DNA of 64,000 bases, from assembly GCA_965649765.1 (NCBI GenBank), contig OZ287756.1:62868001-62932000 (forward strand), in the 5' to 3' direction. The notes under the pieces were generated by a model. The model was not told the origin of the DNA, ran no database searches, and was given only the letters and a program-made list of their open reading frames with translations. This DNA is from Bispira polyomma. Its lineage: Eukaryota. Positions within the stretch are counted from its first letter, which is position 1; each line of letters starts with the position of its first letter. The position numbers and the translations under genes are program-made. Positions 42,335-61,367 of the stretch are shown piece after piece.

Positions 42335-42829
42335 GATTAACTACCTAATGGTTGGATGGCGTCATACTAGTCAGGTGGAAAGGTCTTCTTATTGCACAGA
42401 TTTTGGTGCTCATGTTGTTACTATAGGTTCATGTCCAGGTCGCCGGTAACCGGTCGGACCAAAACATCCCCTTTTCGTTTTCTCTCTCCACTATGGGAGG
42501 AGTAGGGGACGACCATAATCAACACATGCCTAACCACAGTGAGAAATCCTGATGGGAATTGACTGATTGAGGAGAAAAAAGACTTATAGTGAATAGACGA
42601 AAAATAAAAAGTGGCCTAATTACTGAGGGCTAATTTTTTATTTTTATAGAGGGAGTGAGTAATTACTCTGGTCACTCCTCTCCTTTGACTTCTTAATTAT
42701 TAAGAGCAGTGCCCAACTGTATTGGGTACTCTTATTATAGAGAATTACTGAAACTGGGGATTATTTACTTCATCCTTGTTCCACTTAATGAATTAATAAT
42801 TTTCTTGAATACTGTGCAGAAAATTTACA

Positions 42830-43780
42830 AAACAATCTACAGGCGGATCTGCTGGCCAGCTACCACCGGGCCTAGATGAAAAAATTCTTTGTTCGCCCAC
42901 GCAACGTTCTGTAAGTAGAACTGCGTAAAGGTATTGTGAGATTACCTATGACAGGCAGAGAGGATTTGGTCGAGAGACCTCCCACTCCTAAAGGCTTTGG
43001 AGGCGGCAAAGGCTCTAGCATCATGTGCTTTGACTTGATGTAAATTGCATGACTCTTCATCTGAAAGATTATAACGCATAGTAATAACGTAGGGCTCTGA
43101 CTGGGTATAGGGAACGATAATCTGGGACGGATTTGTCTATGGTCGGTGCTAGAGCCGGTATCTCTACAGGGGCTACACTGCCTGGTCAATCTCGGGCCAA
43201 TTGGTTCTTGGCCAGAAAGGAAGAGGAAGAAGATATTGAAAATTTTGACCAGTCCTGCTGGTGTCTATTGTTTTCGTTTACCCAAGCATGTATCTTACTT
43301 CTTTGTTTTCCCGAGGCTAAGGCCATTAGGAAAACAGTTTTGAAAGTGAGGTTCTTCAAAAAAGCCTTCCCTATGGGCTCAAAGGGGGGTTTGGTGAGTT
43401 GTTGAAGAACGAAGAAAAGGTTCCAAGCAGAAACTCCCCTTCTGCCTTTGAGTTTATCCCTATGGAAACTATCCAGTAGTCGATTGAGTTTTTCATTCCC
43501 ACTGATGTTAATCACCGAGTTGCCTATCTGGTCGCCAATCGCTGTCCGGTAACCGTCTATGGTTGAGGGCTGAAGGTTCCGCTCCTCAAAAAGGTGCATT
43601 AGGAAATTGTTTTATAGCTGGAGCCCGAAAGTCCACGTGGTGTATTTCGCACCAACGGACAAAAATGGACAACTTTGCTCTATAGAGGATTCTGGTTGAG
43701 TCTCTTTGAGGAGCCTCAATCCTGACGGCCACTCTCTCAGAGAATCCCTGCTTCCTGATCCTAGATGTTCTAGGAACCAG
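42830..43780 (-). pseudogene. DIRS tyrosine recombinase remnant
   Basis: IRKQGFSERVA...DSTRILYRAK; PSTIDGYRTAI; WNL..VL..LTKPPFEP; TFKTVFLMALASGKQRSKIHA; KAHD near 43020-43035; broken by stops and frameshifts. Confidence 0.85.
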
Positions 43781-43799
43781 GCATGGAGGTTCAGCGATG

Positions 43800-45837
43800 G
43801 GAGATCCCGGTGGCGGGTCCCGTTGAATGACTGCATCAGGAGGGATGGTGATGTTGGAAGTTGTAGGAGAATTTGGGTGGATAGGGAAACTAGGCAGCAA
43901 AACCACGATATTCCTGGCCAACCCGGTGCTATCAGGATGACCCTTCCCGAGTAAAGCAGTGGGAGGACAGGCTAAAAGCTAAAAGTCAAGATCATCCCAT
44001 GGCATACTTAAGGCATCTATTCCCCAGGCTGCCTTATCCAACACCGGAGAGACAAACCGGGGAAGTTTGTTGTTGAATGTGGTGGCAAACATGTCCAGAT
44101 TGGTGCAGTGGCACCTGAGGGTTATTCTCCGGAAAACTTCCGGGGACAGAGCCCATTCTGATTGAATTATCTGGTTGCACCGGGACAATTTGTCTGCAAT
44201 CACATTCAAGTGACCCGGTATGTGTCTTGCCCAGAGAGTGATCTCCCTGTGGTTGCACCACGATAGGAAAGCACAGAGGGAGCCTGACTTCATGCCCCCT
44301 TCTTTGTTTATGTATGAGACCACGGTGGTGTTGTCCGTGGATATTAGTACTGTCTCTTTTAGACACCTTCCTTCAAACTTCTTTAGGGCTAACAAAACCA
44401 CTTTTAGCCCTAGGAAGTCTATGTGCAGTTTCTTTTCTGGGACCAACCACACGCGTTTGGCAGTGTGTCCATCTATGTGTGCGCCCCAGCCTTCATTTAA
44501 GGCGCCTGTAAAAATCTGCAGAGTACAACGAAGGGGGTGGAGAGGTTGACTGGGAAAAAAGTTTTTTCGGGGTCTAACCACCAGCTCAGGTGGGTGTTGA
44601 GTGCTAGGGGAAGGGGGATACTTTTCTCCAATGACTCCGTTACCCGCCAGTTGTTTTTGAGGTTCCACTGGAGAGGTCTCATGTGGAGCCTGCCCAATGG
44701 GACTAACTTCTATGTTGTTCTTTTGTTGTTGTGGGCCTATCAGTGACATAAATTGCCGGACTGAGCAATGGCCTTGGGAAATCAATTTCCGGATCCTGTC
44801 ATTTACTAAATTCCCTCTTTTTGGTGTCGGGCGAACCTGGCCCAAGTGGAGGTTGTATTGATAACCCAGAAAATCGAAGACCTGCTTGGGTATCAATTCC
44901 GACTTCTCCTGGTTTATCAACCAACCTAGTGTTTGTACTAAAGATATCAACTTTTGAGTTTGTTGGTAGCAGATTTTTCTGGATGGGGCTCTGATTAACC
45001 AGATGTCCAGGTACTGGTGTAATCGGATTCCTGACCTTTGTGCCATGAGATTTACTTCCTTGACGACGAAGATAAACTCTAGGGGGCCGTTGATAGACCA
45101 AATGGTAGGGCCTTGAATTGGTAAGGGCTTCCGTTCCAAGAGTATCTCATGTATTTCTGTGACCTTTTGTTTATGTGGAATTACCCGTCGCTGTAGTCGA
45201 TTGAGGTTACCCATTCGTTTGTTTGAAGCGACAGTCTGATTGATTTTGGAGTTTCCATTTTAAACTTTTTGACCTTGAGATAGAGGTTTAAGGTACTGAG
45301 ACCTAGAATGGGGCGCCACTTTCCGTTTGGTTTGGGGACCAGGAAGAGGCGGTTGTAAAAACCCAGGGAGCTTAGAGTGGAGACTTTCTCCACAGCTTGT
45401 TTGTCTATTAAGTTTTGAATGCTTTCTCTTAGAGCTGCATTCCTTAGAGGATTTGAGTACCCGCTTGTTATCAGGGGAGACCTTGTCAGCAGGGGCTTTC
45501 TTTGAAAGGGGAGCGAGTATCCAGCTTGTATTAGAGATAAAGCATGGGGACTGGCTTCCAGTGACCTCCATTGTTCCCAGTAGAACTGGAGGCGACCTTC
45601 TACAGGGGGTGTTTGGCAACATTTGTGACATTTGAGACAATTGGGGCAAACTCTGAGTAAGGAACAAAAGAAACATGATTCATACGTTTTAATCTGTCTT
45701 TTGTTACAGTAGGTACATGAAAGGCAACAATGCTTGAGTATACAGGAAGTTTTGTCTTTACAATATTTACACAATTTATAGCCTGAATATTGTCTACAAT
45801 ACAGGCACCGGGAAAATCCTGGTGAAATAGATTTCAT
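43800..45837 (-). pseudogene. pol: DIRS pol remnant: RT, RNase H and adenine-methyltransferase-like tail
   Basis: GFYNRLFLVPKPNGKWRPI, FKMET, YLDIWLI (decayed YLDD), TDNTTVVSYINKEGG, HIPGHLNVIADKLSR, LDMFATTFNNKLPRFVSP...DALSMPW. Confidence 0.9.
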
Positions 45838-48029
45838 TTGCGCTGCTGAAGCCGGGTACTTGTTTTGTAGGGACGATACTGTGACTGGAAGCCACGACGT
45901 CCCCGATAGGTATTTCCCCGGTTGTTTCCACGGCCGCGTGGGGCTGAGGAGAACTTACCCCAAGATGGGGTGGTGTATTGAGCGTGGGCAGAGGAGGAGG
46001 CTTGAGTAGACGGCTGGTTGGTAGTCTGATAAGGACTGTACCAGCGAGACTGCTTTTGTGACCCGGACTTACTCTAGGCGGTGAGGCCTGAGAAGTACGG
46101 GTCAGCAGATCTGCCTGGTGGATCTCCTCCTCTGCTGCTTTGATGGTGATGTCTTCAAAAAGACCCGGTATATCAAACGGTCCATTTCTCAACTGGTTTG
46201 GGGTACGGTACGGATACTGCTCTTAAACAGAGGGAGGTAGGCATCCCTTCTCATCAGAATGACGTTTGCAGTCAGGGGAGAGATGATGTCGGACACGTAG
46301 CTCATGTCCTTGTGGAAATCTTGTTCTCTCAGGTGCTCATCCATAAAAGCTGAGGAGACTGCCTCAGTGAGCTTAGTAGCACTTCGTATAGGCCGCACTG
46401 TGGTTACAAATTAATGTACCCTCTCTAAGTGAGCGTTCCATCTTCCGGATGCCTTCCTGTGGAAGGGGTCTGAGAGGTGGAGCAGTGGAGGACTTGTGTT
46501 TACATATCCTCTGGCACAAGGAGTGATGCGGACCACGTCCTAGCTGTTGGGAGGCCCGGTGGGGGGGGGGGCTCCTGGTGGCTGTGTGGAGAAGACTTTG
46601 GTGGAATTTTCCTTTGTTAGTACATCAAGAGGATACCACCTCTGTTGCGTCTTAGGTGGTCCGATAAACTTGTCAAGGTGCAGGTTACCACCCTCTGCCG
46701 CTTTTGTGCTGTGTCCGTGGGTAGCCACATGGTGGAAATTGTCCCATTTCCTGAGGAGCCACTGGCAAGCAGTTCAGCTGATACTTTTCCGACAGGCTGT
46801 GATCTGAGTCCTTAAAAAGGGTTCTCTGTATAAGCCGGGAGGTGTTTTACATCTGTGATGTGGGTCCATCCCATAAATTATTGGATAGACCTCATAGTTT
46901 CCCAGAAGAAGCATTCTTCTGACAGGACAGTGGGATCCTGAGATACAGTATCTGTCTCAGAGGCTAAGTCCTCGTCCGGTCCCTGTTGTTGAGAGCCGAA
47001 AAATTCTCCTTTCTCGTGGGTGGAGAGTTCAATTTCTACCTCTTGGTCGGTACTGCTAGAGAAGACCATGGGTGGGGTCTCAGGCCAAGTCATAGTGGAG
47101 GTTACATAGGAACTTGACAAATCATATCCAGCAGGAAGTGTTCCGGTACATGTCGGTGACGTGGGTATGACCACTTTCACACTATCCGCAAAGAACAGAT
47201 TTGGTTTAGCTACCAGAGGTCTAGGCACTGTATGTGTAGCCGGAGGAGGTTTCATCTGTCCCCCAAAGGACCCTGCCAGGGTTCTATCTACGAAGTAGGG
47301 GCTAACAGTAGTAGTAGAGGTCTGAGGTCTAATAGAAGTCAACAGGTTAAACGCTTGTTGTTGAGCTGGAGGTAAAACTGGATTCGATTGAGATGACACG
47401 GGGATTTTTCCCGGAAGTGGTATGAATGCTGGTACCGTCAAACTAACCAAGATGGTCAGTGCTGGAGCTGACTGAGCAAACTCAGGCTCCATAATCTTGC
47501 TCCATGGTGGTCATTCTGTCATTCCAGCCCGCAAAGAGAGATTTAAGCTCTGTCATCAAATCAGTAGGGCAGATCTGTGGTTTGTCAAAACCTGGAGGGG
47601 GTCTGACTTCCCTCTGAACTGGAGGAGTAACAGGGACCATACGTGAAAGTTTTGTAAACCCCAGGGGTGAACCAAAGAGGCTTCAACTCTAGCAGGAGAG
47701 TCACTAGGTCCGATGCTAGCTCCCAAAACTGCTTCTAGATCTTTGTCAGAAAGAACCTGTCCCTCAGCAAATGCTGATCCTACTGAATGTAACTCTGAAT
47801 CCTTTTTCTTATCTTTCCTAAATTTATGGGCAGGTTTAGAGAGTTGTTGGCGTTGAGTGGGGGTGAGTTTAAGGCACAGATCACAAGTAAGTCCCAAACA
47901 GCAAGGGTCGCAACCCAAGTGTTTCTCCCGGCACCTAGCGCATCAATCATGTAGATCGAAAGCTGCCATCTTGTGGCCACAGCCACCCTGTCTCTGGCCA
48001 AAGCCAGACTTTTATTTGTTCTTTTCCAT
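45834..48029 (-). pseudogene. gag: DIRS gag remnant
   Basis: N-terminal Cys/His cluster CGHKMAAFDLHD*CARCREKHLGCDPC...CDLC; RRDAYL; RG-rich C-terminus RGRGNNRGNTYRGRRG...QQRK*; multiple stops. Confidence 0.8.
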
Positions 48030-48189
48030 TAACTGGATAAAGTTCACTCAACAAAATAAAAAAACACCACACTCTATAATCCTAAACCACTTTTCTCAAC
48101 AAGACAAAAAACTAGTTCCGTAGAATTACACGCAATTAAAACTATTTGGAAATATTTCTAAAAAAACTTCTACTGAAGTCCAAGCTAAA

Positions 48190-48509: not shown

Positions 48510-48966
48510 CAGTTCCTCGGGGTAGCCTGAGAAACTGAATTAACCGAACAAGTCATAGAAAGACAATACTGCGGTTAAATATATTTTATTTTATATTTAC
48601 AGCTACTATTACTAAGATATTTATGTACAGTTCTTTGACATGATATACACCTTGTGTGAGCATAAGGTCCCCTTAACTCAATTGAGTTTAGGACTTTAGG
48701 TTAAACCAGAATGAGTTTAAGTAACCCTAACTAATAAAGAAGTTGAATTTAGAAATTTAGATTTAAGTTGAAACTTAAATATGACTTTGAAGATTCACAA
48801 ATTAAAGTTTGACTTAGGTTTTAAGTGCAACTTTAATTAGATGAGTACAATATGTACTTTAATAATACAGGGGGACCTTATGCCCACAGTTAATTCATTT
48901 AGTTTACAGGTAATTAATATGGTACTTGCAATGTTAAACTGACTAGATCTTACAGTCATGCCACCA
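48510..48966 (-). repeat. Ngaro repeat B2 (457 bp)
   Basis: Direct copy of 49847-50303; only 2 substitutions seen by eye (actgCgg/actgTgg, attCaca/attAaca). Confidence 0.97.
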
Positions 48967-49693: not shown

Positions 49694-49846
49694 GAATTTT
49701 AAACTAGTTGTTGCTCTGCTGACGAAACGATAAAGGCGGGAGAATTTGAAAAGGAGAGCCTTATATAGTCGTACACCATCCCATAATAGTAGAACAGGCT
49801 GGGCCCCCAGAACTGAGGCCACGAACGCTGAGGGCGTTCGCTTACA
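49694..49846 (-). repeat. Ngaro repeat A2 (153 bp)
   Basis: Identical by eye to 54899-55051; abuts B1 (cttaca|cagttcc), reproducing the circle junction of the two element ends. Confidence 0.97.
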
Positions 49847-50303
49847 CAGTTCCTCGGGGTAGCCTGAGAAACTGAATTAACCGAACAAGTCATAGAAAGA
49901 CAATACTGTGGTTAAATATATTTTATTTTATATTTACAGCTACTATTACTAAGATATTTATGTACAGTTCTTTGACATGATATACACCTTGTGTGAGCAT
50001 AAGGTCCCCTTAACTCAATTGAGTTTAGGACTTTAGGTTAAACCAGAATGAGTTTAAGTAACCCTAACTAATAAAGAAGTTGAATTTAGAAATTTAGATT
50101 TAAGTTGAAACTTAAATATGACTTTGAAGATTAACAAATTAAAGTTTGACTTAGGTTTTAAGTGCAACTTTAATTAGATGAGTACAATATGTACTTTAAT
50201 AATACAGGGGGACCTTATGCCCACAGTTAATTCATTTAGTTTACAGGTAATTAATATGGTACTTGCAATGTTAAACTGACTAGATCTTACAGTCATGCCA
50301 CCA
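49847..50303 (-). repeat. Ngaro repeat B1 (457 bp)
   Basis: Direct copy of 48510-48966; begins 13 bp after the YR stop codon. Confidence 0.97.
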
Positions 50304-50315
50304 AACCCCAAAATT

Positions 50316-51290
50316 CTAGTAGGTATCTTGTAGAATAGTTTTGAAGGAATCGGCAACCTGGGTACCAGCATTAGAAGAATCAGAAATGTAACGCCAGACA
50401 CAATCAGACGTCCAGGTGCCATGCCTTTGGATGTCCTGAATTGTGACATTATTGTTAAAGGCAAACGTGGCACCTGAACGCCTGAAAGCGTGAAAGGTCA
50501 AGCCAGAGTACTGTGGGCCGAGCATTAGTAAGACATTCTTAAGATGCCTGCGAACCCTAGTATCAGTAAGGGGAATCCAACTGGCATTCTGCTTAAATTG
50601 AAACAAGGGCAGATCTTTCCCTTTGGGAGAAATAGCAAGTATGTTTTTTACAGCTTGAACCGGACATAGAATGGAATTGGTTAAAGCTGGTATGGTGAGC
50701 AAGCGAACAGCATTATTGTCTTGAAGGGTTTTAGACCACTTAACAATGAGGACAGCATACCCTGGCTTGAAAAGGACATCCGCCCTCGCAAGCTGCTTAA
50801 GAGGAGAGTAAGCAGCAACCGAGTGAGCACAGAGGTTAGACAGCCTCAGAAACGAAAAGAAACTGACAAGATAAACTGCTTTAAAAATTTGCCCCATGTA
50901 AGTGCTGTTACATTTCACAATGAGAGACCTGAGCAACTGGAGGTCGAAAATTGACTTAAGTTTGACTTGCAATGGTCTATGCATTGCCAAAGCTTTATTA
51001 TAATAGGTAATTCTTTTATCAGAAAAAGCATCTACAGATATATGGAAGAGGACACACTTTGCCTTAATGGCAGAAAGATGATTAAGAACAAGACTCGCCG
51101 ACACCCCATTAAACGTTAAGAACTCTAAATAAGCTAGGAGATATAACACAGTCACCTTATGAGGAGGCCAAGACATAAAGGCTCCAAACGCCAAGAACAG
51201 CCTGAACATTCTGTTGTAGGCTCTGTTAGTGGCAGGGGTGAAGGCCAGTTCAAGTCTGTCACAAGCTTTCTGCATCAAGGAGAAGCCCAC
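50316..51290 (-). CDS. Ngaro tyrosine recombinase
   Basis: Catalytic residues: FLRLSNL (R), WSKT (K), LCPV, FHAFRRSGAT (HxxR), HGTWTSD.V.RY (W, Y). Confidence 0.95.
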   Translation of the reverse strand: MGFSLMQKACDRLELAFTPATNRAYNRMFRLFLAFGAFMSWPPHKVTVLYLLAYLEFLTFNGVSASLVLNHLSAIKAKCVLFHISVDAFSDKRITYYNKALAMHRPLQVKLKSIFDLQLLRSLIVKCNSTYMGQIFKAVYLVSFFSFLRLSNLCAHSVAAYSPLKQLARADVLFKPGYAVLIVKWSKTLQDNNAVRLLTIPALTNSILCPVQAVKNILAISPKGKDLPLFQFKQNASWIPLTDTRVRRHLKNVLLMLGPQYSGLTFHAFRRSGATFAFNNNVTIQDIQRHGTWTSDCVWRYISDSSNAGTQVADSFKTILQDTY

Positions 51291-51324
51291 AGGGTGTATA
51301 TCTGGAAAACATGACTAACAGGTG

Positions 51325-53724
51325 CTATATAAGTGAGTTAACTTTTAATAAACTCTGGCAAGCAGGCAGCCACTGGACAGCCCCAGCTAACCTAAATAAC
51401 GACAAATGGTTGGCTTCAGTTTCAGTCCATCTTGACAGCAGATCTGCAATTTTATTTTCTTTACCCAACACATGTATGACAACAATATCAATATTAAACT
51501 TGCTAGCTAACATGTATATGTTCCTGGAATACGTGGCTAAGTCCGGATCTCTGGTGCGCCCTGTCTGTAAAACACTTACAACTGCCTGATTATCACATCT
51601 GACCAATATTCTACGACCTCTCCATTTATGAATCCACAATTTAAGAGCTACCAGGATGTTAAGCATCTCCAAAGAAGCAATATTGAGCTCACTCATTTCT
51701 GGAGGAATTTTAATTTGGTACACTTGTTTCTCAAAAATACCCCCCATTCCAGTAAGGCAGGCATCTAATTCAATCTCACCAGTTATGGGCTTAGGCATGA
51801 AAAAAGAAACTCCATTGAACTGTTCTGCAAAAGTGGTGAACCAGTTTAAGTCACGCCTGAATGCAGGGGTGATGGTAATGTACTTTCTGGCGTAATTATC
51901 TCTTAACAACTCGAGCATCCTATTCAAAAAAACACGAGCATACTTTACACATTTAGAAATATATAATAACAAGCCAAGTAAAGACTGGAGCTCTCTCTTA
52001 GTGCAAAATTTCTTAGATCTCCATTCCTGACACTTATCTTTAATTTCACTTAATTTTTCAACCGGGATGGAGGTAGTACCTCGAATGGTATCCACTACTA
52101 TTCCCAGGCAGACAACCTGTGTGCTGGGAGGAACCAATTTTTTCTGACTTACTGTCAACCCCAATTCTTGCAGCAATTCTTGCAATCTAAGGAAAGTTTT
52201 TTGAATTTTGCTGGGAACCGAAAGAGCCAAAAAATCGTCGATGTAGTTGTGGACATTATGATTTTCAGAGTGCATTATGAATCGCACGGCATCCGAAATT
52301 CTCTGAAAAATCGTGCTACCATTACGATATCCGAACGGCAGAGATCTGTCCACATAATAGGACTTCCACTTTAGACCTAGGAGGTCCACGTGGCCAGGGT
52401 CAATGGGTACGTGACGGAAAGCCCTACTTATGTCGACCTTAAATATCTGACATCCTCTACCCAATTTTACCACCTCACTAGTGAGATTATCAATAGATGG
52501 GTAAGACAATAAAAATTCAACACCCAAGAAAGATGACGGAGATGCTCCCGCATTAACCGACCCCCCTTGAGGCCAACTCAAGTCTACGATTACTCTCCGG
52601 TTGATTGAATTCGGTTTGTGTCTCGTCATAAGGGGGGAACAATGCAAGCCCGGAATAGGAGGTTTGACAAATGGCCCTAACATGGCTCCTAACTCACATT
52701 CTTCTCGCATATAAGCTTCTACATGCTGGGGATGTTCCTCCGCCGACTTATGATTAATCTCACTGGATTCGAGTTTTACTGAATGATCCACGTCTAGGGG
52801 AAATCCATACTTTATGAGGAGAGGCAATTGCCAATCCCAGTAATTTTTAAGGTATTTTTTCCAACTCTCGGGTCTTAATTGAGAGGGAACAGGGATTTGC
52901 AACCCTTCATAATTGTGTCTCCCATCAGCCCGAATTAAGTCATGCATTTCCAATATGGAAAGTTCGGGCCCTCCCCCACCATGATCTGCAATCTCACAGC
53001 CCAGAGCAGAGAGAGGCGTGAATCCATAAGGATATTGACTTTGAGCTTGCCATTTTCTGTAAGTAGGATTTGAGGCAGCCTTAACTAACAGGCCTTTCTT
53101 ATTTACTTTCTGCTTCAAAGCACAGGAGTATTTATCGGGACATTCGGAACTTTCCGGGCTATCTTCGGAAGCAGTTTTACTCCTCCCCTTGCCTCGGTTC
53201 ATGGGCTTGTCACTAGTAACAGAAAGGAAGCAAACGGGCTCTTCAATCTTTACACTATCATCGACCGGCAGCGACATTAAAGCTGCATACTTGTTAGCAA
53301 GAGGGAGGTCAGCCACACCCCCATTGACCCGCTGCGCTTCGCCCCCATTCAATCTCGAACAATTGACCTCCTTTGTTCTCACCTTGTCTTGTTTCGCACA
53401 CAAGTCCGGCTTCACAATGGGTGTCAATTGGCTCACAGAGGTACCAAAGGGCCTCACCAAGGTGTCACTTTTATTAGGTAATACATTCACCTTACTCTTG
53501 TCAAGCCTTGCCTGTTTTAGCTGTACATAATTAATACTTCTATTTACACACCCATACTTTTGAACGGGGCCATTCTTTTGCAACGCCTGGCTATAGCTCA
53601 AGCCTGGCCTGGTGCCCTTCACATATTGACACATTTTCTGACACACAGACCTCTCAAATAACTGTACATCCTTAAACTTAGTGTTATAAACAAACCTACT
53701 TTTTCGCTCACCCCTTTTAGCCAC
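51325..53724 (-). CDS. pol: Ngaro Pol: reverse transcriptase + RNase H
   Basis: RVIVDLSWP, KVDISRAFRHVP, LPFG, YIDDFL, LGI; RNase H DAC..GMGG, NIASLE, CDNQAVV, GKENKIADLLSR. The frame opens without an ATG (GTG listed). Confidence 0.96.
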   Translation of the reverse strand: MAKRGERKSRFVYNTKFKDVQLFERSVCQKMCQYVKGTRPGLSYSQALQKNGPVQKYGCVNRSINYVQLKQARLDKSKVNVLPNKSDTLVRPFGTSVSQLTPIVKPDLCAKQDKVRTKEVNCSRLNGGEAQRVNGGVADLPLANKYAALMSLPVDDSVKIEEPVCFLSVTSDKPMNRGKGRSKTASEDSPESSECPDKYSCALKQKVNKKGLLVKAASNPTYRKWQAQSQYPYGFTPLSALGCEIADHGGGGPELSILEMHDLIRADGRHNYEGLQIPVPSQLRPESWKKYLKNYWDWQLPLLIKYGFPLDVDHSVKLESSEINHKSAEEHPQHVEAYMREECELGAMLGPFVKPPIPGLHCSPLMTRHKPNSINRRVIVDLSWPQGGSVNAGASPSSFLGVEFLLSYPSIDNLTSEVVKLGRGCQIFKVDISRAFRHVPIDPGHVDLLGLKWKSYYVDRSLPFGYRNGSTIFQRISDAVRFIMHSENHNVHNYIDDFLALSVPSKIQKTFLRLQELLQELGLTVSQKKLVPPSTQVVCLGIVVDTIRGTTSIPVEKLSEIKDKCQEWRSKKFCTKRELQSLLGLLLYISKCVKYARVFLNRMLELLRDNYARKYITITPAFRRDLNWFTTFAEQFNGVSFFMPKPITGEIELDACLTGMGGIFEKQVYQIKIPPEMSELNIASLEMLNILVALKLWIHKWRGRRILVRCDNQAVVSVLQTGRTRDPDLATYSRNIYMLASKFNIDIVVIHVLGKENKIADLLSRWTETEANHLSLFRLAGAVQWLPACQSLLKVNSLI

Positions 53725-53754
53725 TGCATCTACGCAGTGGCCCCTCAGTTTTTT
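53720..53754 (-). promoter_or_regulatory. Predicted -1 programmed ribosomal frameshift signal (A_AAA_AAC + stem-loop)
   Basis: Sense: GCA AAA AAC TGA GGG GCCACTGC-GTAGAT-GCAGTGGC. The -1 frame runs without a stop into pol (KLRGHCVDAVAKRGERK). Confidence 0.75.
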
Positions 53755-54815
53755 GCCCCTTTCTTATGACATTCACTAGTCTTATGGCTGCCCTCGCACG
53801 TCTCGCAATGATGTCTATAGAACTGACCTCCAGTATTGTGCGAGCTGGGAAATCTACAATTTCCTTCCTGATAAAAGCGACAAGACATTGCACCTTTGCG
53901 ACCGCCAGATTTACTGCTACTAAAGTTACCCAGCCGTCCACTAACCCCAGAGGCATTTCTACTGTTCGACACATGGCGCTGAGCATGGGCTCTTCGAATT
54001 CGATCCATTTTATCTACCTCTAGCCAACCTAGCTTATCCATCTCCATGCTGGTCAATACGACTGCATGGCAGGCCTTAGCTGACTCCCAAGAGAAATCCT
54101 GGGCGTCCTCCATAAGACCCCCCATGTAATCAAGCATGGCATTCTTCACTTCGCTCGACTTTTCTTCGTGAGCGATCCGAGCGAAACCACACACCCATTG
54201 CAACACGGTTAACTCATCGTAGGTAGGCCGAGACTTCGAACTACCCGTCAGCACATAATTTTGAGGCCAGGCGGTGACCTTCTTTACCAATACCTCATTC
54301 GCCCCACTACGCTGGGATTTCAGTTTACCTTGCGAGGTGGTTTCATTCAACGTTTTCAGATCTTTCAATCTCTGCTCCACTTGGAGCTGTATTAGGGCAT
54401 TCTGGTTTAAAAATTCCATGGCAGGAATTATACTGTCGGACGTAGCGATAGATGGGCTTTTACCTACGTCAGCAGAGCAACTAGCAGGCCTGACAACACT
54501 AGAATTCAACAAACTATTACTTGCCTGAACGGGGACCTGATGACTTGCCTGACTACTGGTAAGGTTCGCCGCCAATGCTGCCTCATTCCTCTGAACCCGC
54601 TGGTCCATTTTGACCATTAATTCATTCATCGAGTGCAGTTGAAGTAATATAGCGTTGGTAACTGTATCGCCTGACTCACCGTTCGCGGGTTCAGTGGCTG
54701 AAGCAGCATCGATCTCCTCCCCAGAGACAGAGTCAGAAACTTCTGTAATAACGCAATTTCGCCCGACAGGACGCTCATGTTTGGTTAAGCAGCGACTACA
54801 ATCATAGACAGGCAT
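53745..54815 (-). CDS. gag: Ngaro Gag-like ORF1 with N-terminal CxxC..H..C and C-terminal CCCH/CCHC zinc fingers
   Basis: MPVYDCSRCLTKHERPVGRNC; WPQ..V; YDEL...QWV.G; FSWESAKACHAVVL; CRFYQEGNC....H....HHCETC...H....C. First ATG at 54815. Confidence 0.92.
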   Translation of the reverse strand: MPVYDCSRCLTKHERPVGRNCVITEVSDSVSGEEIDAASATEPANGESGDTVTNAILLQLHSMNELMVKMDQRVQRNEAALAANLTSSQASHQVPVQASNSLLNSSVVRPASCSADVGKSPSIATSDSIIPAMEFLNQNALIQLQVEQRLKDLKTLNETTSQGKLKSQRSGANEVLVKKVTAWPQNYVLTGSSKSRPTYDELTVLQWVCGFARIAHEEKSSEVKNAMLDYMGGLMEDAQDFSWESAKACHAVVLTSMEMDKLGWLEVDKMDRIRRAHAQRHVSNSRNASGVSGRLGNFSSSKSGGRKGAMSCRFYQEGNCRFPSSHNTGGQFYRHHCETCEGSHKTSECHKKGAKN

Positions 54816-54898: not shown

Positions 54899-55051
54899 GA
54901 ATTTTAAACTAGTTGTTGCTCTGCTGACGAAACGATAAAGGCGGGAGAATTTGAAAAGGAGAGCCTTATATAGTCGTACACCATCCCATAATAGTAGAAC
55001 AGGCTGGGCCCCCAGAACTGAGGCCACGAACGCTGAGGGCGTTCGCTTACA
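54899..55051 (-). repeat. Ngaro repeat A1 with TATA-like box (TATATAA, 54966-54972) and terminal hairpin
   Basis: Identical by eye to 49694-49846. Confidence 0.97.
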
Positions 55052-55384
55052 AACTTGCCAAATTAAGTTTATAGTCACTTGTATAGAATTTTGAACACAC
55101 AAAATTTAGTTCTTGGGAACATTAGGATCCATAGCTATTGTAAAGTGTATTCCTAAAACTGGGCATGGCCTCTTAATTGTATTTGCTGAATTGTAACACA
55201 GGAGGCTAAACAAAAAAATCCAAATTTTGGACAAGTGAATATTATGTAAATTGTTATATATGAGATTAATACAAGTTTTAAAAAATTATTTTTGTATTTG
55301 TTGTCCATCAGACTTTTAAACAATATTCAAAAGCCAGATACACTTCCGTCAATACAACAAACTCAAAGAATGACACACAAAGTT

Positions 55385-55850: not shown

Positions 55851-56915
55851 TTTAGGTGAGTTCACACAAGAAGAAAGTAATCAGAGAGGCTCTGGGTTAA
55901 GAAAGAAATGAATAAAAAAATCAGCACACGACTTATAGCGGTTGGCAAGGAATATTTAAGTAGGAGTTGTCAATAAAAATGAACACCTTGGGTGGGGGGA
56001 ATATGGAGGGGGTTTAAACTATTAAATGAAGCATATTCTGTGTTCTTATTTATAGGTGGCTGGACGTTAATAACTTGTACTCTATTTTCAATGAGAGAAC
56101 GCCATAATGTATCTGTTAACCTACTAAAATTACACAGAATATAATAATTAAAACATTTATAAAGTGCCAAATTGATGAGAACATCTTCTCAGCCGCTGAT
56201 ATACAAAAAGGAAAATTAAAGGGGAAACCATGTTGTTACCATAAAGCATCCAGCAAGGGAAGGGTGGCTAAGGAGGATGGGGGGGGGGGGGTGCAGCCTT
56301 AAAAGGTCAGTTTTCGGAAACTAGTGATTTTATCCTGTGATCTGACAGTGTGTGGGAGTTTGTTCCGTTCAAAATGTGGACCAACGGCTAAGCAACGCCT
56401 GTCGATTTTTCCCGGGTAAGACTACTAGATTTGAGGAGTGAGGACATTTATACTTGTATATTTGTGTTTTCTATATATCCCATTTAACATCAGGTGCAGC
56501 CTGATGTGCTTTTTAGTCTGAAAAGAGTGCCGCCGTTGAAAAGGGCACTGCCATAATATGTGAGGCCTTCATGGATTGATTGGACGGAATCGACCTGTCC
56601 AAACAGAGGGGAGTGTCAAAGTTGTCTGAGTCTATATCTGGCCATATCAACGTTAGTGTATTTTAAAATGTGCCACCTGTGTCTTTTTCAAAAAGACAAC
56701 TCTAGTTTTGTGATACTTTCCAATGACATGAATCAGTATACACTTTTATCAATTGCCAACCTCCCCCCCCCCCCCCCCCCCAAGTACAATCTCATTTCTG
56801 TGAGTGACTGTACAATGCATTTTAGTAAATGAATTTGCCTAAGTAGTGGATCCTAATTTATCCATAGACATATTAGAAGTGAAAGTTAAAACTACATGTT
56901 AAAATACATGTAGAG

Positions 56916-57136
56916 TAAGGACTCTAAAATTGGCCACTGAATCTGAAATTCGCCACCTAGAAAATGTTGTGTTTTTGGAAGAATTGTGAGCAGTATTTGC
57001 TGAAATTTAGATTTTTGTGATTGTTTTGCCTAACTTATTCCAATTTCAGTTATATTTTGCCAGTTTTAATTGATTTAGCTTAAATTTTAGGGGTGGCGAA
57101 TTACAGATACAGTGGCCAATTTTAGGGGATTCCTTA
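56916..57136. mobile_element. MITE with about 42-bp TIRs
   Basis: ctaaaattggccactgaatctgaaattcgccacc / ggtggcgaattacagatacagtggccaattttag. Confidence 0.8.
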
Positions 57137-57430
57137 GTGTATGTACACATGTATGCGGCTCCCGACGTCAGACATCCGATTTGCGACTGTGATTTTTTCT
57201 TCCCTACATATTTTTTATTTATTTGTTCATATGTGTCAGACTGCGAATTGCGACGCGCGATCTGCGATTCGCTCCAGGACCGAAAAAATCGGATGAGAAT
57301 ATAAAATCACACTGTTTAAGGTGATAATTCAATAGTAAGGGGGAGGGGGGCGGCGTGGGGGGAGAGGGGGGACGTTGGAGGGGGGGCTGTATATTGTACT
57401 TCGCAAGCTGCATACATGTGTACATACACT
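57136..57430. mobile_element. MITE family C copy 1 (Harbinger-like TIR agtgtatgtacacatgtatgc)
   Basis: agtgtatgtacacatgtatgcggct / agctgcatacatgtgtacatacact. Confidence 0.85.
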
Positions 57431-58767
57431 AACTCTACATCTATCATGTGAATATTACACAATTTACAACTTACTTTACATGTATACACATACAGGAACT
57501 AGCCGTATATAGGATTTTCACTAACTTGAATTTTTAGTTGAAGTTACAAGTAAGTGTATTTTTGAGAATACCAAATCCAAGTAAATCCGAAATATATCTT
57601 GTCAGATGAAAAATCACACTTAATTACCATTTGAAGTAAGTGCACAAATAATCACTTGTCCAAGAAGGCCACCCCTGCGACACGAACAAGGGAAAAATAA
57701 ATTCACCCACTTTCCAAAATAAGTGAATTTCTTCAAAAGTTTTCCTTAAAAATGGTATTCTCAAAACAAGTGAAAAACTCTATTTACTGAAGTTTCACTA
57801 AGAATCCAAGTTAAGAAAGAAATGTCAAAAGGTACACAATCTGCTCACTTGAAATCTTGAAAGTTTTTTCTACAAAGTATGTAATTTTTCCTTTGTGAAT
57901 ACCACTTGGATTTAAGTTAGTAAAAAAAAAAAAAACAAATACTTAAAATCTAGGTTGGAGAATTCGAATTTCACTTGTTTGTGATTACCTGGTCGTCTGT
58001 ATCCGGGAAGTGAATAATTTACAGGAAAAAAATACCCTCTCATGTACAAGTGCATACATGTACAGTAAACTGAAGTACTGAAACAGTGATGATAACAAGA
58101 TGACATATATATGTATGTGTAAACATAGACACATTTCAAGAGGCTTTTAGTGAAAGGGATATATACGTACAAAGGATTGCTGCTACAATTGATCACAATA
58201 CATCGAAAGAAAAAAATATCAAGGTCAACTTCAGCTGAAAATAAATCTCTACCAGAAAGTAAATATCTATTTAAAAACAAGGTGATATTTTGGTGATAAG
58301 GATGCACTGGGGAAAGATACTAAAGTAGGTACAACTGCCGTATCTGGTTTATTAAGAGGCACAGCAAGTTGTGAAGGCTCAGCGGATCCAGCCACAAAGT
58401 TTTTGGACTATAAAAAGGTGTCCACTGTTAAAAAATAGGACACACTGGTGACATGAACTGGACTAAAACAAAAAGTGTTCATTCTGGAGAGGTGTTCACC
58501 GACATATGTTTTACTGGATTACAAGGTATGGAAGATTTAAATTATTTAAGACATGGGTAATGGTTATAATAAAATAATTGTTTATAGCCCATAATGTTGC
58601 TGGATCAGATTATTGGTTTTTTTTAAGCTGTTAAATTAATGTTAACTTTTTCTTGGAAATATTAATTTCAGTGTAATAATGGCATATACAGTGTTCAAAA
58701 CACTTTCATATTAGTTAACACTGGTTAATGTAATAAATTATGTATATGTTTTTTAAATTCTAGGCTA

Positions 58768-59080
58768 AGTGTATGTACACATGTATGCGGCTTGCAAAGT
58801 GCAATTTATGGCCCCCCTCCACTGCCCCCCTCTCCCCCCACGCCGCCCCCCCCCCCTCCCTTACTATTGAATTATCACCTTAAACAGTGAGATTTTATAC
58901 TCTCATCCAATTTTTTCGGTCCTGGAGTGAAAAGTTCGCATTCGGAAGCCGCAAATCGTCAGTCGCAATTCGCAGTCTGATACATGTGAACAAATAAACA
59001 AAATATATGAGGAGAGAAAAAAATCGCAGCCGCAAATCGGACGTCTGATGTCACAAGCCGCTTACATGTGTACATACACT
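58768..59080. mobile_element. MITE family C copy 2, inverted relative to copy 1
   Basis: Same TIRs; the interior is the reverse complement of 57160-57400. Confidence 0.85.
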
Positions 59081-59963
59081 TAAACTGTTTTCCAAAACTT
59101 AATTACAAGATGGCTAGAATGCCTCCATGCATACATTTATTTATATTAAATATAAATGGCTTTGTGTAATCCATCAGATACCCTAAAGTCCCACAATTTT
59201 AAGTTTAGTAAAGAAACTTTCTTCTGCTGGGCTCGTGCAGATCTTAAGATTAATAGTCAAATGCTTAAATGTTCAGCTAAAGGGGGAGGCCCCGGAAGTA
59301 TGAGTGTTTAATCTGCTGATATATACTGATATTACACACAATACAATCCAAATTACTATCTAAATATCATACAAACAAAATAACATACAACTACAACAGG
59401 ACCACATTTAGTTAGTGGCAGCACATTTGATATGTTAGGCTTTATAGTGAAGATGGAGTTAACCACGTTTACAGTCATTTTGAAGAAAACAACATAACAC
59501 AAATATAAAATTCTGCTTATAAAATTGAACATTTTTAATTTACAATTTTTGAGAAGTTCGCTGTAAATTATTTTTACTATCCCATCTTATTAGTGTAAAT
59601 AACTAAAATGAACTCACAGTTAAATTTTCACTAACAATAGTGACCTTAAATTTCACTATGAAAAGACAAAATTTTTACAACAATACACCAATTGACTTTG
59701 CATCTTGAATAGAATCATTTTAACTTGATTGCATCATATTATTTGTGATTTTCTAACTGAAATCAATGACAAATGCTTATTTATTTCAGAAAAAGAACAG
59801 AACATCTGTACTATTCATACACTACCACTCAAAAGCTACCAGGTCCAAGTATTATGGGATCACCAGAGGGTCAACATAACTACTGTTTAACAGGTGCAGA
59901 TAACACTTTAGGCCATATAAGCCTAGACCCTTGACCATTGTTTTTTTTTATAGACACCCGAAT

Positions 59964-61367
59964 ATGCCTCCTGTTAAAATAATAGTTGAGTCACTGTGTC
60001 ATTTTGCACTATGGATATCAAACACAATCTCCTTCATTGTTTTATACATTTTAAATCATATACTACAGCTCAGACCAAAACTGTCTCACCTTGCCCATAA
60101 GCTGCCTCAAGCATTACTGCCAAAAAAATGTCGGATTGCCAATTCGAAAACCAAGACCAACATGAAGCCTCCAAGACAAAAGAAGTTTGAGAAAAAAGAT
60201 CAAGGTGTTCACATTCTAGTTCACTGCACTGTAGTGCCTAGATCTCATAAATGCACCACTCAAAACTACTACAGGGAACTGGACTTCTGTGCGGACGTCT
60301 TCTTCACAGATTACTACACTGCCCATAAAGTACCTCACACGGAGAGGTTTAAATCTCTGCTGCGAGGTGACCAACTACCTCGACTGCTGTCCCACATGAC
60401 ACTGCCCCATATGTATGTGGCCTGGAGGGATGTGTTGTCTAGGCAAACCCTGGAGATTTTACTTGACCATGCCGAAAAAGCCCATCATCTGAACAATGAC
60501 CTTTACTTTCTGGCCGGGGTGGCCTGTATTAAGTGTCGCCTGTGTCTGGAGTCCAACTACAATGACAAGGCTATCAAGTACTGTGAAGAAGCGGAATCCT
60601 ATCTACTGAGTCTGGAAAACGGCTGGCAAAAAGCAGTGATATACTACACCGCCATTCTGACGCTACTCAGGAAGTCGCAGCTGTACAGAAACAACAGAAG
60701 GGAGTTTCTGTACGAGTGCATCGATGTGTTCAGGAAATGCATAGATTGCTTAATTACTGATCTCGACTGCAACCTCAGCATGCGGTATTACCGCCTAGCC
60801 ATGTTTATGATAGTCATCTGTATCAAGATTGACCTGTTTGTACATTCTTCAAAGCTGTCACACTGGAAGACCAGGACTTCGGCTTTGTTCATCTCAAAGC
60901 AGGAGGAAATTAATGCTATGCTTAAGGAAGCCAACGCCATGCACCAGGATCTACGCAGACAGCAGGCAGTTATATTGCAAAATAAATCCAAGTTCTGGCC
61001 GGAAACCCTGCAGAATATGAGACATTGCATAGAGAAATGCGAGAGATTAATGCTGGTCGTGCCTAAAACAAACATGGAATGTAACAGACTGAAGGAATGT
61101 GCTACACAGTATATACAGGTGATGATCAAAACACAGGGCCACTACTTGTATGAACACAATCTGGACGGAGGAGGAGGGGGGACTCTCTTTGGAGGGATCT
61201 CCAAAGGACTATCACTTGAAGTAGTCTCTGCTAAAACCTGGATCCCTGCTGACCTGGACAATAGCCCTGCAGCAACAGGATCTGATGCCACAACCAGCAA
61301 TTGGGATCACTTCTCGGGAACATCATCTGGGCATTCGCATTGGTCTGGTGGTGATGATGGTTTGTAG
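59964..61367 (+). CDS. Uncharacterised alpha-helical (TPR-like) protein, paralog 2, with hydrophobic N-terminal segment
   Basis: Acceptor (t)n-atag| at 59953 followed by ATG at 59964 (MPPVKII); homologous to 39014-40297; AATAAA at about 61464. Confidence 0.82.
   Translation: MPPVKIIVESLCHFALWISNTISFIVLYILNHILQLRPKLSHLAHKLPQALLPKKCRIANSKTKTNMKPPRQKKFEKKDQGVHILVHCTVVPRSHKCTTQNYYRELDFCADVFFTDYYTAHKVPHTERFKSLLRGDQLPRLLSHMTLPHMYVAWRDVLSRQTLEILLDHAEKAHHLNNDLYFLAGVACIKCRLCLESNYNDKAIKYCEEAESYLLSLENGWQKAVIYYTAILTLLRKSQLYRNNRREFLYECIDVFRKCIDCLITDLDCNLSMRYYRLAMFMIVICIKIDLFVHSSKLSHWKTRTSALFISKQEEINAMLKEANAMHQDLRRQQAVILQNKSKFWPETLQNMRHCIEKCERLMLVVPKTNMECNRLKECATQYIQVMIKTQGHYLYEHNLDGGGGGTLFGGISKGLSLEVVSAKTWIPADLDNSPAATGSDATTSNWDHFSGTSSGHSHWSGGDDGL

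Follow-up and report, generated by a model that had tools for sequence, protein, structure and literature searches.

Predicted -1 frameshifting at the gag/pol boundary and likely splicing of the recombinase in a clade of Ngaro-type retrotransposons

How a tyrosine-recombinase retrotransposon expresses three open reading frames (ORFs) from one RNA when it encodes no protease has, in the literature that we found, so far merely been guessed at. The question is raised by an element in a 64,000-nt stretch of Bispira polyomma DNA (contig OZ287756.1; hereafter the window, in whose coordinates all features of the element are given, and on whose (-) strand they lie), which, by its repeats, ORFs and domains, is a young, intact Ngaro-type retrotransposon with a gag-like ORF, a pol frame for reverse transcriptase (RT) as well as RNase H (RH), and a tyrosine recombinase (YR). 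According to the original prediction, made from this DNA alone, pol is reached from gag by -1 ribosomal frameshifting. We compared the junction across copies and families of the element, and posit, with a probability of roughly 0.9, that a conserved slippery heptamer and a hairpin downstream of it drive programmed -1 frameshifting at the gag/pol boundary.

The heptamer A_AAA_AAC, in phase with gag and directly before its TGA stop, and the perfect, G-U-extendable 8-bp GC-rich stem that follows it after 6 nt were both found exactly as the original prediction had placed them (Table 1). The hairpin has a computed folding energy of -17.4 kcal/mol (z-score -3.27; equalled by 2 of 200 dinucleotide shuffles) and, a hairpin in the A repeat excepted, is the most stable 40-nt window of 1317 along the element; no loop partner for a pseudoknot was seen by eye in the computed folds. 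The pol frame, open from 53763 to 51325, begins just 16 nt ahead of the gag stop, and any shift from gag to pol is therefore confined to that stretch, which contains the heptamer. As the original prediction also held, this frame lacks an ATG at its beginning, the first standing at 53634, 38 codons on. The junction thus combines an X_XXY_YYZ heptamer in the upstream frame and within the overlap, a stable RNA structure predicted 5-9 nt downstream, and a long -1-frame coding ORF under selection from the slip site onward. Heptamers of the same class are common by chance (15 in the 6.6-kb element; 67 in 15,466 codons elsewhere in the gag and pol frames of family representatives), so that the heptamer alone means little, and its location, codon-level conservation and hairpin carry the case. 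The cassette is not an assembly error, because a contig from an independent public run spans 53632-53761 with 0 differences, and 39 other genomic copies with 93-100% identity share the heptamer and the stop position.

The family of the window element is young and large, with 231 candidates in a DNA search, 40 of which were scored, at 93-100% identity. Two protein searches gave 8,323 and 9,546 candidates, of which 150 and 103 were scored. The 166 distinct loci examined comprise 40 from the DNA search, 60 from the first protein search and 66 of the 103 scored in the second. The 60 were chosen according to identity band and in part for having a long gag frame, with the junction left out of view; 30 loci of the first protein search and 4 refetched ones were dropped as duplicates. 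Clustering at 80% Gag identity produced 24 clusters, two of which, with frame-broken anchors, were merged into the window family. The resulting 22 families, all within this genome, are mostly 40-75% identical in Gag (down to ~40%), and one chained cluster of 18 may lump subfamilies.

AAAAAAC is present at the end of gag in 153 of the 166 copies. Among the 13 copies missed, two have it just outside the search window, three read A_AAA_AAT, and the others show single changes, deletions or a lost junction. The conservation across families that the original prediction proposed to check is complete at the codon level: with one copy per family, selected without viewing the junction, the Lys codon is AAA in 22/22, the preceding third base is A in 22/22 and the Asn codon is AAC in 20/20. 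Elsewhere in Gag, each of 25 further conserved two-codon columns contains both synonyms (top share 0.50-0.86), and K-N at other places is encoded as A_AAA_AAC in 5 of 87 cases. Such fixation, against synonym mixing elsewhere, argues that the site is held as RNA and not as peptide. Database Gags with 41-64% identity, which by inference come from other assemblies and were compared as protein only, agree in position: 58 of 88 reach the last zinc knuckle, 54 of these have K-N right behind it, and in 50 it lies at most one residue from the end. The excerpts of PMC5009743 place A_AAA_AAC among the most shift-prone heptamers. A single copy among the 166, L122 (G000:C2:18603500-18608600), has lost the cassette through an internal deletion, so that a single open frame of 1105 codons spans gag and pol.

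Averaged over 20 representatives, the folding energy of 35-nt windows reaches -13.3 kcal/mol at +6 nt past the heptamer, as opposed to -2.1 to -6.7 at offsets at least 10 nt away, and 15 of the 20 have z-scores below -2, with the structure lying 6-9 nt downstream of the heptamer in most families. The stop may be TGA, TAA or TAG and may stand 0, 1 or 7 codons past the Asn, with the spacing unchanged. Other families keep the heptamer and the spacing with unrelated stems, and one has a sequence, read by eye, that is predicted to be able to form an H-type pseudoknot 8 nt downstream. Within the stem type of the window element, covariation is seen at the outer and inner pairs around an invariant core: among 13 sequences, one stem pair switches from C-G to G-C (7 versus 5), five kinds of pair occur at the inner position, and cells changed on both sides of the stem number 9, as against 3.7 in shuffles (reached in 0 of 500). 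Length variation also occurs here. In the L138 family (e.g., L143, L147, L158, L178), a C run inside the predicted stimulator stem differs in length, often breaking the pol frame, and L084, L104, L116 and L151 carry short deletions in or across the hairpin, a pattern suggestive of a deletion hot spot.

Beyond the junction, codons 10-69 after the heptamer are free of stops in the -1 frame in 118 of 153 copies, and in the other two frames in 6 and 8; this all-copy count is used in place of per-representative stop counts, which are partly circular as the representatives were chosen for a long -1 frame. The first pol ATG falls anywhere from codon 1 to 299 across families. Upstream of the window's first pol ATG, third positions differ most (0.59 versus 0.40 and 0.33) in a frame-blind alignment of 7 families, the test that we rely on; synonymous exceed nonsynonymous differences (pS > pN) in 21/21 pairs of a protein-guided alignment, which is biased.

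On this reading, the hairpin would stall a ribosome while tRNA-Lys and tRNA-Asn occupy AAA AAC; both tRNAs would move back by one base and pair again, and translation would bypass the gag stop, so that a minority of ribosomes would make a Gag-RT/RH fusion (predicted 1163 aa) rather than Gag alone (356 aa). The slip product given by the original prediction, beginning K-L-R-G, matches the -1 frame read alone, but in classical tandem slippage the Asn would be retained and the product would read A-K-N-L-R-G-H-C. Frameshifting would set a high ratio of Gag to polymerase and would tether RT to the Gag particle. As also claimed originally, the element appears to encode no protease, with neither a Pfam match nor a D[ST]G motif in the window's gag and pol, and the fusion would remain uncut unless a host enzyme cleaves it.

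Several observations weigh against frameshifting as the route to pol. For five of the 20 representatives, the 35-nt test shows no strong hairpin. The stem covariation that the original prediction proposed to look for held in part: the excess of both-side changes stood, but five of the ten stem pairs are invariant and the 3 covarying pairs do not exceed what shuffles give (157/500), the alignment being 13 hand-picked sequences of one stem type, in which kinship inflates other measures of covariation. A possible reason for the invariant core is that, in the pol frame, it pairs His-Cys third positions with Ala-Val first positions, so that any compensation would alter the peptide. An AUG overlaps the gag stop (AUGA) in 2/20 families, and three more have an ATG by codon 14, which makes re-initiation possible in these five. 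Outside the clade, we collected a distant set of 42 metagenome loci with 25-44% RT identity, 39 of which were examined and three of which begin at a contig edge: a -1 heptamer in a gag/pol overlap was found in 0/39, most of these loci are broken, and in six of them a clear gag is overlapped over 122-386 nt by a pol in the +1 frame. By this comparison, the cassette characterizes this clade and is not shown for all Ngaro elements. In the distant RT relatives L203, L205-L207, L239 and L241, gag likewise terminates in a zinc knuckle of this kind but overlaps a pol in +1, a different expression route. Alignments of Gag to metagenome contigs and of RT to viral contigs gave no matches.

The AUGA overlaps and the invariant stem core, together with an ATG 38 codons on in the window and at codons 36-41 in five related families, would also suit a pol made separately from an internal AUG, by re-initiation or leaky scanning, with the hairpin doing another job such as RNA packaging and K-N kept for the protein. 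However, selection on protein cannot fix AAA, AAC and the preceding third base, 18 of the 20 families lack the AUGA overlap, three families have their first ATG only at codon 113, 155 or 299 and an open frame as far as that codon, and the stretch ahead of the ATG evolves like coding sequence; we regard this explanation as very improbable. Still less likely is that pol is reached by splicing: gag does have a conserved donor (see below), but no phase-compatible acceptor recurs at one offset between -60 and +450 nt of the heptamer in the 20 representatives, where the commonest weak site is found in 3/20, and the heptamer and its spacing would be left unexplained. Since the heptamer contains a run of six A, RNA polymerase might slip there and add a base, yielding the same fusion from ribosomes that do not slip; six A is short for polymerase slippage, however, and the fixed C after the run and the structure 6-9 nt downstream fit the ribosome, so that we give this source hardly any credence. 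With a variable ATG, a rare AUGA, no recurrent acceptor and a coding pattern that extends upstream of the ATG, -1 frameshifting is the only route common to all families. Initiation of pol at its own ATG or from a separately spliced mRNA, which the original prediction had itself named as alternatives, finds no conserved ATG, stop-start overlap or splice acceptor to match it, whereas the proposed Gag-RT/RH fusion by frameshifting is supported by codon-level conservation of the heptamer, structure at ribosome distance and the coding pattern upstream of the ATG.

The original prediction missed a further set of signals, which likely serve to express the recombinase. At the pol/YR boundary, frames 0, +1 and -1 are all found and most families have no overlap, which makes a second frameshift unlikely in this clade, and we rejected that candidate. 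Instead, AG|GT in phase 1 occurs at a matching conserved Gly of Gag in 146 of the 154 copies (of 166) that had the anchor motif, and in 20/22 families, against a background of 125 in 898 Gly codons. A T-rich YAG in phase 1, at the codon where recombinase homology starts or the next one, is seen in 81/84 copies and 16/17 families (84 of 100 loci extended to the acceptor region). Donor and acceptor are conserved in matching phase, as for a GT-AG intron, although the signal is weaker by a crude score. In the window, removal of the predicted intron (54328-51302, 3027 nt) would join the first 162 Gag codons to 328 recombinase codons and take out the frameshift site and pol. We consider it likely that the recombinase is made from such a spliced RNA, as a fusion to the N-terminal half of Gag.

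Other features speak against splicing. The crude score favored another acceptor in the window family (19 copies) and in one more family, and phase 1 wins it in 60 of 84 copies; the donor fits only AG|GTAAA of the consensus; and the recombinase frame has an ATG of its own 10 codons past the acceptor. No intron-less copy, with an open frame near 490 aa, was seen by eye among the best 150 matches to the N-terminal half of gag and the best 150 to the recombinase start, out of thousands of candidates, no search across the predicted junction having been made. The predicted intron joint is absent from the 10 joints listed for contigs of three runs from one study, contigs of unknown kind, which has no bearing on expression.

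The element is assigned to Ngaro by its architecture and domains. Its split repeats are ordered A1-[ORFs]-B1 A2 B2, with an 884-nt spacer between A2 and B2, and its ORFs run from gag-like through RT/RH to YR. No methyltransferase follows RH, pol stopping ~30 aa past the RH match (no Pfam match), and this absence sets Ngaro elements apart from DIRS1-like and PAT-like ones. There is no Pfam match to an aspartic protease or DDE integrase in the element, and no D[ST]G[AS] motif within the first 330 aa of 12 representatives. These features, on which the original identification as a Ngaro YR retrotransposon holds, agree with the Ngaro definition (A1-[ORFs]-B1A2B2; gag, RT/RH and YR; no methyltransferase) in the available portions of PMC8547959, PMC13465315 and PMC3783388. 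RT is matched by Pfam RVT_1 (E 3e-10), and the zinc region of Gag weakly by zf-CCCH_4 (E 0.09), with its Cys and His invariant in 25 Gags. The window recombinase alone matched nothing in Pfam or PDB, and 7 of 10 aligned relatives matched PF00589; against solved structures, the single protein gave no match and a profile gave only spurious TPR matches.

Table 1. Features of the Ngaro-type element, in window coordinates
Feature	Position	Strand	Remarks
Split direct repeat A1, 5′ end of element	54899..55056	(-)	158 nt, 99% identical to A2
gag-like ORF1	53745..54815	(-)	356 aa counted from the ATG; CCCH and HC-C-H-C zinc-knuckle region at the C terminus; last residues K-N, then stop
Predicted phase-1 splice donor within gag	54323..54332	(-)	Last exon base 54329, first intron base 54328
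pol frame (-1 to gag), with an N-terminal linker followed by RT (YIDD) and RNase H	51325..53763	(-)	812 codons; 807 aa after slip site
Slippery heptamer A_AAA_AAC	53748..53754	(-)	X_XXY_YYZ phase with gag (GCA AAA AAC TGA)
6-nt spacer	53742..53747	(-)	Starts with gag stop TGA
Predicted stimulatory hairpin	53720..53741	(-)	Perfect 8-bp GC-rich stem, 6-nt loop; extendable by one inner and one outer G-U
First pol-frame ATG	53632..53634	(-)	38 codons past slip site; position varies across families
Predicted phase-1 splice acceptor, 23 nt past pol stop	51297..51311	(-)	Intron ends 51302
Tyrosine recombinase coding region	50316..51301	(-)	R, H-x-x-R, H/W, Y motifs
Split direct repeat B1, abuts A2	49847..50146	(-)	300 nt, 99% identical to B2
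Split direct repeat A2	49694..49851	(-)	158-nt counterpart of A1, 99% identity
Split direct repeat B2, 3′ end of element	48510..48809	(-)	99% identical to B1

Some further features of the element and its surroundings were recorded. The A repeat (55046-55006 and 49841-49801, (-)) holds the element's most stable 40-nt hairpin region (-19.4 kcal/mol), a possible priming or packaging signal. The leader from A1 to the gag ATG (54898-54816, (-)) is T-rich and closes with TTTTAG, which resembles an acceptor, 19 nt ahead of the ATG; the six nearest families, though not all, have comparable T-rich leaders. An intron in the 5′ untranslated region is possible, and a GTAAG stands at the start of the A repeat. 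Just downstream of B2 lies a decayed DIRS1-like element with broken frames (42800-48100, (-)), in which we take certain motifs to represent gag-like, RT/RH, methyltransferase-like tail and recombinase-like fragments; its two gag-region ORFs, the only ones scanned, gave no Pfam match. Nested imperfect inverted repeats at 56900-59100, with arms of 131 and 119 nt at 82-84%, resemble a non-autonomous DNA transposon, and an intron-less 487-codon open frame at 59904-61367 (+) has no Pfam match.

In the literature that we searched, neither a slippery site between gag and pol nor splicing of the recombinase was found described for Ngaro or DIRS elements, though Goodwin and Poulter 2004 and Poulter and Butler 2015 may already mention a gag/RT overlap. 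Neither feature is described in the accessible parts of PMC3783388, PMC8547959, PMC6681497, PMC3266345, PMC13003380 and PMC13465315, nor in those of bioRxiv 10.1101/2022.06.16.496473, PMC9210276, PMC7192593 and PMC4157794, and DIRS or Ngaro are not mentioned in the excerpts of PMC5009743.

On balance, we favor the view that this clade runs a retrovirus-style programme without a protease, with Gag translated from the genomic RNA, an uncut Gag-RT/RH fusion made by -1 frameshifting, and a fusion of the N-terminal part of Gag to the tyrosine recombinase made by splicing. If so, the Gag tag would deliver both enzymes to the particle, and splicing would set the ratio of integrase to polymerase. The clade offers exact, testable signals for both downstream enzymes, with splicing predicted in place of the guessed second frameshift. 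Its approximately 20 natural cassettes, with one heptamer and differing hairpins or a predicted pseudoknot, are useful for the study of stimulators, and annotation from the first ATG would truncate RT and the recombinase. The frameshift mechanism is itself textbook, which limits the surprise; it is the combination with splicing that we did not find described.

Among known systems, the cassette resembles retroviral -1 sites, such as mouse mammary tumor virus (MMTV) gag-pro and human immunodeficiency virus type 1 (HIV-1) gag-pol, in its X_XXY_YYZ heptamer, short spacer, downstream structure and predicted Gag-polymerase fusion, and MMTV gag-pro uses the same A_AAA_AAC. Unlike the retroviral sites, it has a stop directly after the heptamer and belongs to an element without a protease or DDE integrase. 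Retroviruses (env) and long terminal repeat elements (copia gag) also make spliced sub-genomic RNAs, and the predicted division of labor is alike, with Gag and Gag-Pol made from an unspliced RNA and a third product from a spliced one; in contrast to env or copia gag, however, that product would join the N-terminal half of Gag to the recombinase, the integrating enzyme. The window has a simple hairpin, unlike MMTV gag-pro, for which the excerpts of PMC5009743 give a pseudoknot, and like HIV-1 (PMC4373837). As quoted in the accessible part of PMC13003380, Poulter and Butler 2015 guessed that the Ngaro YR ORF overlaps RT/RH in the -1 frame and is reached by frameshifting; in contrast, YR and pol do not overlap in the window, the YR frame differs from family to family, and the conserved signals are those of splicing for YR and of frameshifting at gag/pol.

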